DNA of 64,000 nucleotides. Origin: an uncultured archaeon. GTDB lineage: Archaea > Asgardarchaeota > Thorarchaeia > Thorarchaeales > Thorarchaeaceae. The DNA lies in NCBI GenBank assembly GCA_964610875.1, contig CAZSWP010000008.1, positions 1 to 64,000 of the forward strand. The letters are read 5' to 3'. Positions 22,218 to 27,943 of this stretch are shown here, piece by piece; positions within the stretch are counted from its first letter, which is position 1, and the number at the start of each line of letters is the position of its first letter. The position numbers were made by a program, and so were the translations under genes. The notes below the pieces were generated by a model. That model made no database searches. It saw only the letters and a list, made by a program, of their open reading frames with translations, and was not told where the DNA came from.

Positions 22218-24596
22218 ATGCAATTATTCGAGACATTCATTGAAATGATGTTCATAGAACAGGCAATGATATTGACTGTTATAGCAGCAGCATTCGTAAG
22301 TTTCGTGTATGCTTGGTGGCTCAGAAAGACTGTTCTAGAAAAGGGCAAAGGAACTGAGCAGATGCAGAAGGTATGGAATGGAATCAGAGAAGGTGCATTG
22401 TCTTATCTTAACAGACAGTTGAAGACAATTATACCAATTCTTGTTGTACTCTCCTTCCTTCTCTTCTTTACCGTGTACATAACTGTACCAGAGAGAGGCA
22501 CTAATGAGCTCTTTGCAGGAGACCTCGAGACCGGTAAGATTCTTGTTGGAGTCGGCCGTTCAGTTGCCTTTGTTCTCGGTGCGGGTTTCTCTTTGATAGT
22601 TGGTCAGCTCGGAATGCGGATTGCTGTCGAGTCCAACATCAGAGTTGCTCAGGCTACACGAGAGGGTGAAGACAGATATAATCGAGCACTTGACATCTCT
22701 TACAAGGGTGGCACATTCACTGGAATGCTCACTGATGGACTTGGACTGCTTGGAGGCACTGTCATTTTCATCATCTATGGTATTGCAGCGCCTGATGCAC
22801 TCTTAGGATTTGGTCTTGGTGGTACTCTATTAGCACTATTCATGCGTGTTGGTGGTGGTATCTATACCAAAGCCGCAGATGTTGGAGCTGACCTAGTTGG
22901 TAAGTTAGAACACGGGCTTCCAGAGGATGATCCACGAAATGCAGCAGTAATTGCTGACCTCGTAGGAGATAATGTGGGTGACTGTGCGGGTATGGCTGCG
23001 GATATATTCGAGTCATACGAGGTTACAATTGTTTCAGCGCTGATTCTCGCGATTGTGATTTATCTTGAGAACCCTGCCACATTACTTCCTGGTGGTCTGC
23101 TTGCTGTAGTAATCTTTCCACTGTTCATCAGAGCAGTTGGTGTGATATCATCAATACTTGGCACATTCATGGTCCCTGTTTGGCCACGATTGCTAAAGAA
23201 AGCACAAGTATACGCTGAGAAGGCAATGTTCCTTTCATATGAGGTTTCCAGCATCTTTACAATCATTCTCTCATTGCTCATATCATGGTTCTATGTTGGT
23301 GACCTACGATTTGGAATACTGATAGCTGTCGGTGTTTTGCTTGCAGTATCATTCAATCCAATCACTAGCTACTTTACTTCATTGAAGAAACCACCCGTTC
23401 AAGAGATTGTCAAATCTTCTGACACAGGTACAGCCACATTCATTCTTTCAGGGCTTGTTGCAGGTTACGAATCAACTGTCGCTGCTTTGATTGTAATTGT
23501 TACTAGCTTTGGAATTGCATGGGCACTCTTCCTTCCAGCTGTAGCTACAGCAGCATCACCATTCTTTGTGGCAGCTGTTGCTGACGGTCCTGGTCACTTC
23601 TTATGGACCCTCTATGGAATTGCCCTCATTGGTATTGGAATGCTGTCACACACTGGCAATAATGTTGCAATGGACTCATATGGTCCTATTAGCGACAATG
23701 CTGCTGGAATTGGTGAGCTCTCCCCCGGCGACTTTGACGAAGAAGCAATGAAGACAATGGCTGAACTCGATGCCGTAGGTAATACTACCAAGGCCATCAC
23801 AAAGGGAGTAGCCATTGCATCAGCAGTCATTGCTGCTGTAAGTCTATTCGAAAGCTATGTGGTCATCAGCGGATTGGACCACCTACTCCTTGACAATCCT
23901 ATTGTATTCTCTGGACTACTACTTGGAGCTGCCCTTCCATGGTTGTTCTCTGCTCTGAATATCAAAGCGGTAACACGAGCTGCAGGTGAAATGGTTAAGG
24001 AAGTCCGTCGTCAATTCAAGATTCCGGGAATCCTAGAAGGTACGAAGGAGCCCGACTATGATCGAGCTGTAGACATTTCTACGACCGCTGCTCAAAAGGA
24101 ACTCATCTCATTGGCTGCACTGACAGTTACATTCCCATTGATTGTGGGTATTATGTTCGGTGTGGAAGCTCTGGGTGGATTCCTTGGTGGGATTATCGTT
24201 TCTGGTCAGTTACTGGCTGTCTTCATGTCTAACTCCGGTGGAGCTTGGGACAATGCTAAGAAAGCTATTGAAGACGAGCCTTGTGATCCGGAAGCAAATA
24301 CTGGAAAAGGCTCTGAACGTCATAAGTGTGGAGTTGTAGGTGATACCATTGGTGACCCTCTAAAGGACACTGCTGGTCCTGCCCTTAATCCAATGATTAA
24401 GGTCGTGAACCTCCTCTCACTCATTCTTGCACCAGTCCTACTCACATTCCAGTTTGGTGCAGATATGACCGTTAACATAGCCCTACTCGGTGCTTTGTTC
24501 GTTCTCTTCCTGATAACTATCTGGTCTATTCGGAAGAGCTCCGCACAAGCTGACTTTGGAGTTGAATCTCCAGACGTAGAAACTGCAGAAGTATAA
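22218..24596 (+). CDS. hppA: Membrane-bound pyrophosphatase, K+-independent type (H+-translocating by inference)
   Basis: GGGIYTKAADVGADLVGK, EDDPRN, DNVGD, DSYGPISDNA, GNTTKA (Lys determinant), GDTIGDPLKDTAGP. Confidence 0.95.
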   Translation: MQLFETFIEMMFIEQAMILTVIAAAFVSFVYAWWLRKTVLEKGKGTEQMQKVWNGIREGALSYLNRQLKTIIPILVVLSFLLFFTVYITVPERGTNELFAGDLETGKILVGVGRSVAFVLGAGFSLIVGQLGMRIAVESNIRVAQATREGEDRYNRALDISYKGGTFTGMLTDGLGLLGGTVIFIIYGIAAPDALLGFGLGGTLLALFMRVGGGIYTKAADVGADLVGKLEHGLPEDDPRNAAVIADLVGDNVGDCAGMAADIFESYEVTIVSALILAIVIYLENPATLLPGGLLAVVIFPLFIRAVGVISSILGTFMVPVWPRLLKKAQVYAEKAMFLSYEVSSIFTIILSLLISWFYVGDLRFGILIAVGVLLAVSFNPITSYFTSLKKPPVQEIVKSSDTGTATFILSGLVAGYESTVAALIVIVTSFGIAWALFLPAVATAASPFFVAAVADGPGHFLWTLYGIALIGIGMLSHTGNNVAMDSYGPISDNAAGIGELSPGDFDEEAMKTMAELDAVGNTTKAITKGVAIASAVIAAVSLFESYVVISGLDHLLLDNPIVFSGLLLGAALPWLFSALNIKAVTRAAGEMVKEVRRQFKIPGILEGTKEPDYDRAVDISTTAAQKELISLAALTVTFPLIVGIMFGVEALGGFLGGIIVSGQLLAVFMSNSGGAWDNAKKAIEDEPCDPEANTGKGSERHKCGVVGDTIGDPLKDTAGPALNPMIKVVNLLSLILAPVLLTFQFGADMTVNIALLGALFVLFLITIWSIRKSSAQADFGVESPDVETAEV

Positions 24597-24613: not shown

Positions 24614-24648
24614 GGTGGCTAAATAGCCACCCTTCCCTCTTATTTTTC
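24614..24648 (+). terminator. Hairpin + T-rich terminator after hppA
   Basis: GGTGGCT-AAAT-AGCCACC followed by a pyrimidine/T tract. Confidence 0.6.
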
Positions 24649-24733
24649 CAGAATTTGATTTCTTCTAAATTATCTAGTTATGATGATTCTAATCGAAGCT
24701 CAGACGTAGTATATATTAGGCATGATGTCTTCC

Positions 24734-24862
24734 AGAGAGTGTGAGATACTCAATCTCACGCGGAGGAAACGGTTGGGTTCCGTTTCAGGAGAAAGAGAAT
24801 GTAGGTGTTCGCGGACCTACGCGCAGTGGTCTGCGAGCACTGTTTTCTCTAATTTCATTTTT
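24734..24862 (+). ncRNA. Candidate structured ncRNA: four hairpins in two loop-complementary pairs
   Basis: TATA-like TATATATT at 24710-24717; four stems; loop-loop complementarity; AGAGA(G/A)/TTCTCT closing stem; T-rich 3' end. G:U pairs indicate the + strand. Confidence 0.65.
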
Positions 24863-24924: not shown

Positions 24925-25239
24925 ATGGTGTCAATAGCAATTCTTCCGATTTTCTTACTGGCTTATGGAGGTCCAACAACGCTCTATTTCATGGCGCGGT
25001 CTGTAATGAAAAAGGAGTACTGTAACGATGCCCTATTACTGGCTTTAGTAGCCATTGCAGGATGCATTCTTGGAATTGCTGCTATTCTGAACACATTATC
25101 TTTCCCATACACCTTCTCTAGAACTTCAATGCCTGTTGAGGTAATGATTCAATATTCTATTCCCTCCATTATTCTCACTACCATCATGTTGATAGACCTC
25201 TTGTTATTATATAGAAACAATATCCCATCTTGGGATTAA
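24925..25239 (+). CDS. Small 3-TM membrane protein
   Basis: 104 aa, three hydrophobic segments, AGGT upstream. Confidence 0.5.
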   Translation: MVSIAILPIFLLAYGGPTTLYFMARSVMKKEYCNDALLLALVAIAGCILGIAAILNTLSFPYTFSRTSMPVEVMIQYSIPSIILTTIMLIDLLLLYRNNIPSWD

Positions 25240-25291: not shown

Positions 25292-27106
25292 TTAAAGGAC
25301 ATATCTCTTCTTTTTCCTGCGTGTTACACTGACAATCATTATTGAAGGAATAATGACAAGCAAAAACCCTCCCAAGATATAAGGCATATAATCAGTGCCT
25401 TCGTCTGTGTTATTTGTGTTTGTTTCTGTGTATCTTGAATAGAAGAAATCCTCATCATATCTGAGAATAAGTGATTTCTGGAAGCTATACGAATCAAGTC
25501 GGAAGGGTCCACATGTCACGAACCCCTCCAAGTCAAATCCAGAAAGCCAGGTAACAAATTCGTCATTGTTATCTATCTCTGACCAGATATGCTTTGGAAC
25601 AATTGGCATGTGCGCCACAGTCTCATAATACCAGTATGATTCCGTGTCAAACTCTATAACGAATCTAAATGGCGTAGGTGTATATGCTGCGAATAGGTTC
25701 TGTAATTGACTTCCATACACATTCTCTGATTGGTTGTAGAGGAGGAGAAATGAGAAGAGTACGTCTTCAGCAGTCAAAGGTTCGGAATCAGACCATGTCG
25801 CATTTGAAACAATTTCAAAGGTGAATCTCTGATGGCCATCAATGATATCAGGATTCTCCGGATGTGTTTCAACAGAATATGACTTAGCAAGCCAACCTAT
25901 TTCTTCTCGAGCTGGACCTTCCTGCAATAAACTTGGAAAGAGCAGTTTGAGGTATGATGCATCTGGAAATGTGTATTGCTCCCGATACGGATTGAATATC
26001 TCAGGCTGCGTTACCCCAACTCTTAGGGCCTCTCCTGGATTGTTTTCAAATTCAGGTTCTGCCAACATATAGTTCCACCAAAGCAACCTATCTGATAGTA
26101 GAGGGTCTACAAATCCACTGAAAGTATCAGTTCTAACAGGAAAACTATGTACATTTTGATAAGTAATGACCACAGGACACTCGTAGACCAAAATCTCTTG
26201 TAATGCTTTGGCTGCATCAAAGGTTTCTTCAAATGAGTAACTAGTCAATAAATTGGAGATATGAGAATCATATGTGCTATTTCTGAAATTTGGCAAATTA
26301 CTAAAATCTACTTCAGCATTCTCCGAGTGATAGTTTTCTAACCATGTCAAACTATCGCTGAAGAAATCTACTCCTGTGAACCAGATGTCATAATCTCCAT
26401 GGAAATAGAGTCGTTCAGGATTGTTGTAGGTAAATGTGAGATCCTCATAATTAATGTTCAGGGACTCCAATGCTTTCCCCAAGTAATAGGCACTACCTAG
26501 TCCTAGGTTAGTAGATGAACCTTCGATTGTTATTTGAAACTCGCTTCCATTCGGTGTTAATCGATATCCTGTTTCATTACTGATAGTGAAACCTGCATCA
26601 TCAAGCAGATCATTTCCAAGCTCTGGGTGGGCTTCATAGTAAAGCCCTTCTAGATTATCCTCGATGGACATTGGATTTTGTCTTGGGACTGGAGCATCTA
26701 ATGGGTGTCCGGTTCCATCCAAAACATCTGACGAAATATTCTCTTTATCAAGAGCATAAGCAATCGCTCTTCGAAATGCTGTGATGTTCAGTGGGTATTT
26801 CTCACAGTTGATGATGAAAAGTCCATATCCATTTCGTTCTGTATTAATCAGTGTTACATTGTTTCGTCCAGCAAAGTAGCTGTAAGCACTACCTACTGGG
26901 TCTGGTATCATATCAAGCTCTCCATTTACAAGAGGTTGATAGTGTGAATCAAAACCATACTTAAATTGAAATTCAATCTTGTTTACTTCTGGTGTTTTGG
27001 GATTGGAGTCATGCAGTGGAATATGTATTTGAGGTTTTGAGGTGCCGATTATTAGAAGAAGCAAAAGTAGCGTAACTTTCACAATAGTCTTCTTCTCGAC
27101 GAACAC
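25292..27106 (-). CDS. ABC-type oligopeptide-binding (family 5) protein with C-terminal TM anchor
   Basis: Signal peptide, FRRAIAYALDK, WLAKSY, ATWSD.EPLTAEDVLFSF, GPFRL; C-terminal TM plus RRKKKR. Confidence 0.85.
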   Translation of the reverse strand: MFVEKKTIVKVTLLLLLLIIGTSKPQIHIPLHDSNPKTPEVNKIEFQFKYGFDSHYQPLVNGELDMIPDPVGSAYSYFAGRNNVTLINTERNGYGLFIINCEKYPLNITAFRRAIAYALDKENISSDVLDGTGHPLDAPVPRQNPMSIEDNLEGLYYEAHPELGNDLLDDAGFTISNETGYRLTPNGSEFQITIEGSSTNLGLGSAYYLGKALESLNINYEDLTFTYNNPERLYFHGDYDIWFTGVDFFSDSLTWLENYHSENAEVDFSNLPNFRNSTYDSHISNLLTSYSFEETFDAAKALQEILVYECPVVITYQNVHSFPVRTDTFSGFVDPLLSDRLLWWNYMLAEPEFENNPGEALRVGVTQPEIFNPYREQYTFPDASYLKLLFPSLLQEGPAREEIGWLAKSYSVETHPENPDIIDGHQRFTFEIVSNATWSDSEPLTAEDVLFSFLLLYNQSENVYGSQLQNLFAAYTPTPFRFVIEFDTESYWYYETVAHMPIVPKHIWSEIDNNDEFVTWLSGFDLEGFVTCGPFRLDSYSFQKSLILRYDEDFFYSRYTETNTNNTDEGTDYMPYILGGFLLVIIPSIMIVSVTRRKKKRYVL

Positions 27107-27235
27107 ACCAATTCCTCCTCATTCTTAGCTATTTCTTCCTATTTACTCTTGACGTTCCAAGGACAATTTCAGTGACAAAGATTATTTCCTTCTACTATCA
27201 AATCAATATCGATTAGATCAGTACTAGTGATTACT

Positions 27236-27556
27236 ATGGCTGAAGAAACAAGTTGTCCATATTGTGGTTTACCTGCTAATGCGGGAACCGCTGAATCTGA
27301 CGAAAAGAAAACACTTCGTTGTAGTAGATGTGGCGGCTACTTCGATTATATTCCTGGATTTGGTGCTTTCTCACTTTCCGATGAAGAACAGAGTGAACAT
27401 CGTCGGAGCCAACGGTGGTCTGGTTATTCAGGAGTTCCTCGTACAATTGAGTTCTCATCAGAATCAGAAGGTGGTCCCTGTATTGCATGCTGTGTGATTA
27501 TCTGCATTTTGGGTGTGTTTTTCATCCCATTGATATTCATCTTATCTCTCTTCTAA
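27236..27556 (+). CDS. Zn-ribbon protein with C-terminal TM helix
   Basis: CPYC...CSRC, followed by a Cys-rich hydrophobic C-terminus. Confidence 0.7.
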   Translation: MAEETSCPYCGLPANAGTAESDEKKTLRCSRCGGYFDYIPGFGAFSLSDEEQSEHRRSQRWSGYSGVPRTIEFSSESEGGPCIACCVIICILGVFFIPLIFILSLF

Positions 27557-27584: not shown

Positions 27585-27670
27585 AGGTGGGCCCGTCCCA
27601 GAAGAAAGAGTTGTAGGTATTCGCGTGGTTAGGAGGGGGGAGATTTGTTTTAATTCTGAAACGAGCCCTT
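27585..27670 (-). ncRNA. Candidate sRNA: 15-bp terminal stem with 50-nt C/U/A-rich loop
   Basis: Minus strand GGGCUCGUUUCAGAA pairs with UUCUGGGACGGGCCC (3 G:U); TTATAATA about 25 nt upstream. Confidence 0.5.
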
Positions 27671-27943
27671 GATTAAATTTTGAGTTGTAGTATTATAATA
27701 TTATAGATGTATGCAGAGAATTTCTCGCCATTCATAGCACCCCAGTTCCCTCTGCGTCACTGAATTTCTTCAAATTAATATCTGTTGAAATGTACTTAAT
27801 CTGTTGGTTCCGTGCAAATATTTTAGTCCAATCTATCTCTAACATTCTCAATAGTCGTTTTATGTTACTCCACCTTTGATATTTTCAAACCAAGGATTTA
27901 TCGAAAAAGCAATGGTAATATCATTACAAGCATGTGTTGAGAA

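Follow-up and report, generated by a model that had tools for sequence, protein, structure and literature searches.

An Asgard archaeal gene for a new small RNA with specific complementarity to a second small RNA

Behind the pyrophosphatase gene hppA, in the 64,000-nucleotide stretch of thorarchaeal DNA analysed here (the window), lies a short segment with dense internal complementarity, and the question is what it encodes and what its pairing serves. A sequence-only reading had proposed a noncoding RNA built from two tandem kissing-hairpin modules, either standing alone or acting as a riboswitch-like leader. The segment is a hitherto undescribed Asgard gene for a small RNA, here called RNA A. 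It is probably a stand-alone gene of ~113–120 nt (~24739–24851, plus strand), and its predicted transcript is probably a real small RNA. The locus, up to the trailer of a second small RNA (RNA B), is organized as follows.

22218–24596, plus strand: hppA, membrane H+-pyrophosphatase (PF03030, E 9e-230), the synteny anchor
~24614–24650: hppA's own hairpin terminator, kept in relatives
24710–24717, plus strand: TATA box of RNA A, recognized by sequence; predicted 5' end 24737–24740
24739–24851, plus strand: RNA A (fold z −5.4; 11 positional homologs in genera g2, g7, and g8; no Rfam match), a predicted transcript
24843–24862, plus strand: T-rich terminator region of RNA A, recognized by sequence; g8 and g2 homologs finish in T runs
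24925–25239, plus strand: 104-amino acid hydrophobic ORF, variable cargo between RNA A and RNA B and not a conserved partner of RNA A
25292–27106, minus strand: family 5 solute-binding protein gene (PF00496, E 2e-37), cargo between RNA A and RNA B
27227–27556, plus strand: 109-amino acid Zn-ribbon and membrane ORF, cargo ending beside the 3' trailer of RNA B, oriented as cargo ORFs are in relatives

The stem sequence of the hppA terminator hairpin (window 24614–24650) is kept across the family.

The fold of the RNA A region is non-random (z −5.4, with 0 of 200 shuffles as good; the minus strand has z −3.9), and a separately assembled DNA run, possibly from the source sample, contains the identical region. 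No Rfam family matched RNA A, as had been expected. Of the earlier statement that it is not a tRNA, 5S RNA, or obvious SRP RNA, the tRNA and SRP parts were supported. We rejected tRNA, SRP RNA, and RNase P RNA as identities, as those genes sit elsewhere, and likewise a split SRP or RNase P RNA, the complete genes being present on other contigs. Inverted repeats are abundant at the locus, as would befit a MITE or other dispersed mobile repeat. However, a search for dispersed copies recovered no further full copy in the 3.75-Mb genome, and the single copy has fixed synteny, lacks a terminal inverted repeat, shows neither empty sites nor extra copies, and has G-U pairs that favor one strand, which makes a mobile repeat extremely unlikely.

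A blastn search with RNA A found no relative in 60 genomes, and homologs were obtained via synteny and via RNA B; most matches of hppA in metagenomes came from unrelated organisms. In genus g8, synteny revealed a relative of ~85 nt that follows hppA in six genomes. Two further relatives of ~105 nt occur in g2 and three of ~70 nt in g7, for a total of 11 positional homologs in three other genera; none was found in additional genera with the queries used. RNA A is thus found in 4 of 16 genera, along with cis promoters in g10, and RNA B is family-wide. The position of RNA A is fixed between hppA and RNA B, with the two RNAs separated by 0.1–7.8 kb (0.1 kb in genome G031).

The TATA-like box and T-rich tail noted by the sequence-only reading are both present. 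All RNA A homologs begin ~27–30 nt past a common purine-rich and TATA motif, which is kept at the position of the RNA A TATA box and from which the window's own promoter diverges. Where the TATA box of an RNA B gene is clean, the first paired base likewise lies 27–30 nt past it. Homologs mostly have a T-tract at their end, with those of g8 and g2 ending in T runs. A convergent gene comes next after 10 of the 11 homologs, and a relative of the 104-amino acid ORF after none. The common promoter motif, T runs, and convergent neighbors suggest that RNA A is a stand-alone gene and not a leader.

The other half of the earlier proposal, a riboswitch-like leader for the gene at 24925, was not supported by this comparison. 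In its fuller form, this explanation takes the locus to be a tandem kissing-loop riboswitch or toxin-type leader for the 104-amino acid membrane protein. The hydrophobic ORF does begin 73 nt past RNA A in the same direction, but a T-rich tract intervenes, a length-limited search at E 0.01 returned no relative of the ORF, no Rfam riboswitch matched, and the downstream gene is convergent in nearly all homologs. The same orientation counts against a riboswitch of any kind, for which a conserved place upstream of related same-strand genes would be expected. A type I toxin-antitoxin leader was rejected, as no conserved small hydrophobic ORF lies behind the homologs. A purine-type three-way-junction riboswitch was rejected as well, with no Rfam match to E 5 and junctions of only 0–2 nt in the four-hairpin fold.

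Two side observations concern sequences resembling RNA A. In genus g6, a conserved leader of ~95 nt precedes a large secreted-protein gene (L313:1503-1691, plus strand; L314-L318; L327); it has a promoter motif like that of RNA A, a purine-repeat hairpin loop, and a weak likeness to RNA A, and is possibly a target of RNA B. In genome G008, ~3.96 kb downstream of RNA B, locus L140 contains a possible minimal RNA A of ~55 nt, with a TATA-like box, a tract complementary to RNA B, a short terminal stem, and a T run.

We next consider the fold of RNA A, in which the following elements are distinguished, all on the plus strand.

24739–24761: hairpin H1, 9 bp (pair probabilities 0.94–1.0), whose loop can cover loop 2; not kept as such in homologs
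24766–24786: hairpin H2, 7 bp (probability ~0.8), covering the part complementary to the 3' stem arm of RNA B
24787–24793: open purine-rich linker (unpaired probability 0.77–1.0), a candidate toehold
24794–24850: 3' domain, a 6-bp closing stem (24794–24799 with 24845–24850) and a 14-bp hairpin (24804–24841)
24800–24821 (H3) and 24824–24842 (H4): alternative fold of the 3' domain (probability 0.00)

Four hairpins can indeed be drawn where they had been placed (H1 24739–24761, H2 24766–24786, H3 24801–24820, H4 24824–24842), and the 6-bp complementarity between loops 1 and 2 and the 7-bp complementarity between loops 3 and 4 are both present, occurring together in just 0.09% of loop shuffles. 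These above-chance complementarities, together with a bistable 3' domain, favor the kissing-loop leader. However, H3 and H4 have an equilibrium pairing probability of 0.00, and the four-hairpin state (−39.6 kcal/mol, pseudoknot energy left out) lies 16 kcal/mol above the minimum of −55.6 kcal/mol. The reason is a single 14-bp helix (24804–24817 with 24828–24841; probability 0.8–1.0) into which loops 3 and 4 combine with their flanks. This helix bears out the refolding of H3 and H4 into one hairpin that the sequence-only reading had offered as an alternative. A 7-bp kiss is unlikely to pay for 16 kcal/mol. The loop pairing scheme is not unique either, as loop 2 is also complementary over 5 nt to loops 3 and 4. 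Tandem kissing modules are not supported as a conserved architecture, none of the 11 homologs having complementary hairpin loops; the kissing loops are peculiar to this genome, with loop-loop pairing found only in the window. We consider the kissing-loop leader very improbable. Known kissing-loop RNAs of the SRP Alu or guanidine-II type were rejected on the same window-only pairing, a full SRP RNA gene being present on another contig.

Two further claims held in part. Either AGAGAR tract had been said to pair with the 3' TTCTCT; the second purine tract does so (probability 0.71–0.76), but the first does not (probability 0.00) and probably sits mostly upstream of the 5' end of RNA A. The frame shared by the two modules is repeated, occurring twice in the 3.75-Mb genome and both times here, but two frames in one sequence are insufficient for the internal covariation that had been read into them.

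Folds of RNA A vary by genus. The segment covered by H2 has its equivalent covered by other partners in homologs, and shuffled sequences fold as well as the short homologs do (z 0 to −1.7). Only for a nascent chain ending at 24822 is H3 the best fold, and both g2 homologs have an H3-like hairpin in the corresponding position. Between these two homologs, two compensatory and two one-sided changes occur in 26 pairs, located in the flanks (a comparison of two sequences only, for which the shuffle control is uninformative); these changes lend support to selection at the RNA level.

What, then, might the internal complementarity of RNA A serve? A model of the g8 RNAs matched a second site in the window, which is RNA B.

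27589–27668, minus strand: RNA B, in which a terminal stem of 15 bp closes a single-stranded loop of 50 nt; the near-invariant core of the loop contains a tract like the anti-Shine-Dalgarno (anti-SD) sequence
27691–27698, minus strand: TATA box of RNA B, recognized by sequence, 30 nt upstream of the stem; spacing kept in relatives

Blastn detected RNA B in 63 of the family's 76 genomes, with three borderline short matches elsewhere; a covariance model detected it in 23 of 26 family genomes and in 0 of 124 other genomes of the phylum. Its stem covaries, with 8 of 13 pairs changing on both sides (2 of 500 shuffles as good). Its loop core is near-invariant and tolerates inserted hairpins at fixed points. 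In a search of 185,579 species, a 20-nt piece of this core matched 50 records, and each title gives Thorarchaeota, Promethearchaeota, or unnamed archaeon; judged by the distribution of this core, which was found in no other named group among these species, RNA B is known only from Thorarchaeota. The 16S rRNA of Thorarchaeota has an anti-SD sequence at its end.

RNA B has no Rfam match. Y RNAs and vault RNAs, which are 80–110 nt in length, have a terminal stem around a large pyrimidine-rich loop. RNA B resembles them in these two features but differs in lacking an Rfam match and in lacking a TROVE/Ro60 (PF05731) match in this 95% complete genome. A role as an rRNA or tRNA guide was rejected, as nothing consistent was found, including no consistent 16S or 23S site in three relatives. 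No conserved mRNA target was found. The HerA leader was rejected as a target: its 11-nt match here is lost in relatives and was probably set by an upstream stop codon. The leading guess for the function of RNA B is the blocking of G-rich ribosome-binding sites.

Second full-length paralogs or variants of RNA B, with their own stems, occur in g6, g9, and g3 (L371, L398, L403, L410, L416, L185, L129, L140, L158). Separately, the 16S rRNA match of genome G008 (L352) spans 2.4 kb as compared with 1.5 kb in relatives, which suggests an intron or insertion.

The genes of RNA A and RNA B are 2.8 kb apart and on opposite strands, and RNA A contains a long tract complementary to RNA B.

24774–24813, plus strand: anti-B tract, 37 bp (5 G-U) with 27588–27625; at the DNA level, a direct repeat of the 3' half of RNA B

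This complementarity to another small RNA is specific. In a scan of 18,882 genome windows, RNA A gave the best non-self match to RNA B, scoring 57 against 42 for the runner-up and 35 at the 99.9th percentile, and cognate A:B duplexes beat shuffled RNA A in 10 of 10 pairs (0–2 of 200 shuffles as good). The net computed energy of A:B binding, after unfolding both RNAs, is −8 to −45 kcal/mol (−14.5 kcal/mol in the window). RNA A does not qualify as a cis-encoded antisense RNA, given the 2.8-kb separation; an A-type promoter motif directly faces RNA B only in two g10 genomes (G009 and G033). The RNA A sequences of g7 pair best with RNA B of g7, and those of g1, g2, and g8 with theirs, although such lineage-matched pairing is also expected from duplication alone. 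The g7 match scores, at 42–45, are near the top of the chance range, and the g7 assignment rests on promoter and position. The two g2 homologs agree at 25 of 25 tract positions, while 18 other positions differ (P 0.004). Altogether, sequence comparison gives us moderate confidence that A:B complementarity is kept by selection.

The fold of RNA A can be understood in these terms. The dense internal complementarity is explained without a tertiary kissing fold because the rest of RNA A covers the anti-B tract piecewise, leaving 24787–24793 open. In the predicted structures, most stems of RNA A may thus serve to cover the tract complementary to RNA B.

Copies of RNA B that have no promoter provide a comparison. 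About 16 promoter-less direct repeats of the 3' half of RNA B occur 0.4–4 kb downstream of RNA B in g6, g8, g9, and g15. Most of these bracket a single ORF, mostly pointing towards RNA B, which indicates that the RNA B site is a hotspot of gene gain. Bracketing repeats at L373, L377, L381, L389, L391, L394, L395, L399, L411, and L132 form a cassette-like array, and no integrase was recognized close to them. An isolated repeat of the g1/g8 RNA B type occurs at L130:2736-2768 in a g4 genome (G067) that has a different RNA B of its own, owing to transfer or bin contamination. No integrase was recognized among the ORFs listed between RNA A and RNA B, part of which were scanned, and the one tyrosine recombinase of the genome is on another contig. 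Viral contigs contained a 16-nt match inside unrelated sequence and no anti-B copy. We regard as improbable, though worth stating, the idea that RNA B is a housekeeping RNA doubling as a site or primer for serial single-gene capture without a linked integrase, with RNA A as a base-paired gate.

Duplication alone explains the likeness of RNA A to RNA B. The likeness could therefore be no more than the scar of an att-like duplication; RNA A would then be either a relic or a separate small RNA with a different function, and would not act on RNA B. The single-ORF repeats fit this explanation, as does the fact that RNA A matches them in orientation and nearly in extent, including the trailer of RNA B; the shuffle-like folding of the short homologs fits it too. 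However, substitutions point the opposite way in the two classes. For transitions relative to RNA B, the ratio of pairing kept to pairing broken is 49:29 in RNA A genes and 40:75 in promoter-less repeats (odds ratio 3.2, nominal P 1.4e-4, which is overstated because congeneric species are not independent). The bias comes mainly from g1 (5:0) and g8 (23:12) and is weak in g2 (4:4) and g7 (17:13), and the enrichment of G and U in RNA A may serve its own fold. The scar is also countered by the invariant tract and variable flanks in g2, the retention of RNA A in six g8 and three g7 species, and the conservation of its promoter and T-tract. On balance we consider it unlikely, but a serious alternative.

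The complementarity is shared evidence for a different relationship, in which RNA A pairs with RNA B as an obligate partner: a chaperone, a processing guide, or half of a two-piece RNA. The predicted duplex extends to the 3' end of RNA B and its trailer, and in the window 8 nt of the 5' arm of RNA B are within reach of the freed 3' strand of RNA A, which could catch them. Yet RNA A was not detected in most genera bearing RNA B, pairing destroys the covarying stem of RNA B, and the region of RNA B covered by RNA A differs between g7 and the others. We find an obligate partnership rather improbable.

The explanation we prefer, to which we give somewhat better than even chances, is that RNA A antagonizes RNA B as a trans-encoded antisense RNA (sponge) and arose from duplication at a gene-gain hotspot. 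RNA A would be transcribed from 24737–24740 and would fold with most of its anti-B tract under its own stems; the 'kissing' complementarities would be covers for this tract, and H3 a folding intermediate. The open linker at 24787–24793 and the adjacent weak stem would then meet the single-stranded pyrimidine part of the RNA B loop. Strand exchange would lead to the 37-bp duplex, unzipping the terminal stem of RNA B and covering part of its invariant core, and RNA B would thereby be sequestered or degraded. As to origin, the 3' half of RNA B may have been duplicated repeatedly as genes were gained beside it, with the copy nearest hppA kept under a promoter that directly faces RNA B in g10, such that an antisense RNA first encoded in cis came to be encoded in trans. 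The cis promoter in g10 and the A–B spacing of 0.1–7.8 kb elsewhere fit this cis-to-trans history. Points against the antagonist are that RNA A was found in few of the genera that have RNA B, that the window's promoter diverges from the common motif, that the g7 scores are close to chance, and that no conserved mRNA target of RNA B was found.

Several known systems resemble such an antagonist in part. Sponges of the AgvB and SroC type pair through short seeds, whereas the ~37 bp of complementarity in RNA A come from copied sequence of the gene for its proposed target. As proposed for RNA A, these bacterial RNAs are trans-encoded and pair with and neutralize a small RNA (PMC8383071). In enterobacteria, the well-conserved ~100-nt SdsR (RyeB) is accompanied by the less conserved antisense RNA SraC (RyeA), which is conserved across the complementary region only and has a variable promoter; foreign DNA has entered the locus repeatedly, RNase III cleaves the pair, and SdsR works with Hfq (PMC3333887). 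RNA A and RNA B are similar in having an antisense RNA conserved only over the overlap at a locus taking up foreign DNA, but SraC overlaps SdsR in cis, whereas RNA A lies 0.1–7.8 kb from RNA B except in g10, and we claim no sequence relation. SdsR controls SraC more than the reverse (PMC3333887), an analogy that urges caution about the direction of control between RNA A and RNA B. The two may work as do CJnc180 and CJnc190 of Campylobacter jejuni, although these are cis-encoded and RNase III-processed (PMC8687705) and the targeting of ribosome-binding sites by RNA B is a guess. A model for RNA B is sRNA162 of Methanosarcina mazei, in which a single-stranded region masks a ribosome-binding site (PMC3510493); the two are not homologous, RNA B consisting of one terminal stem with a large loop and having hypothetical targets.

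No description of RNA A or RNA B was found in the literature searched, subscription journals being outside its scope, and the A:B pair belongs to no curated family. The new element is a trans arrangement that stems from partial copying of a gene, here in an Asgard archaeon. Asgard regulatory RNAs are nearly uncharted territory, and this pair offers two new RNA families and an RNA-RNA interaction accessible in vitro without culture. The series of genomes, from a cis promoter in g10 through a 0.1-kb separation in G031 to kilobases of cargo elsewhere, shows the possible birth of an antagonist, with decaying copies of RNA B as a built-in neutral control. RNA B, with a 20-nt core identical across Thorarchaeota, may be the larger prize.
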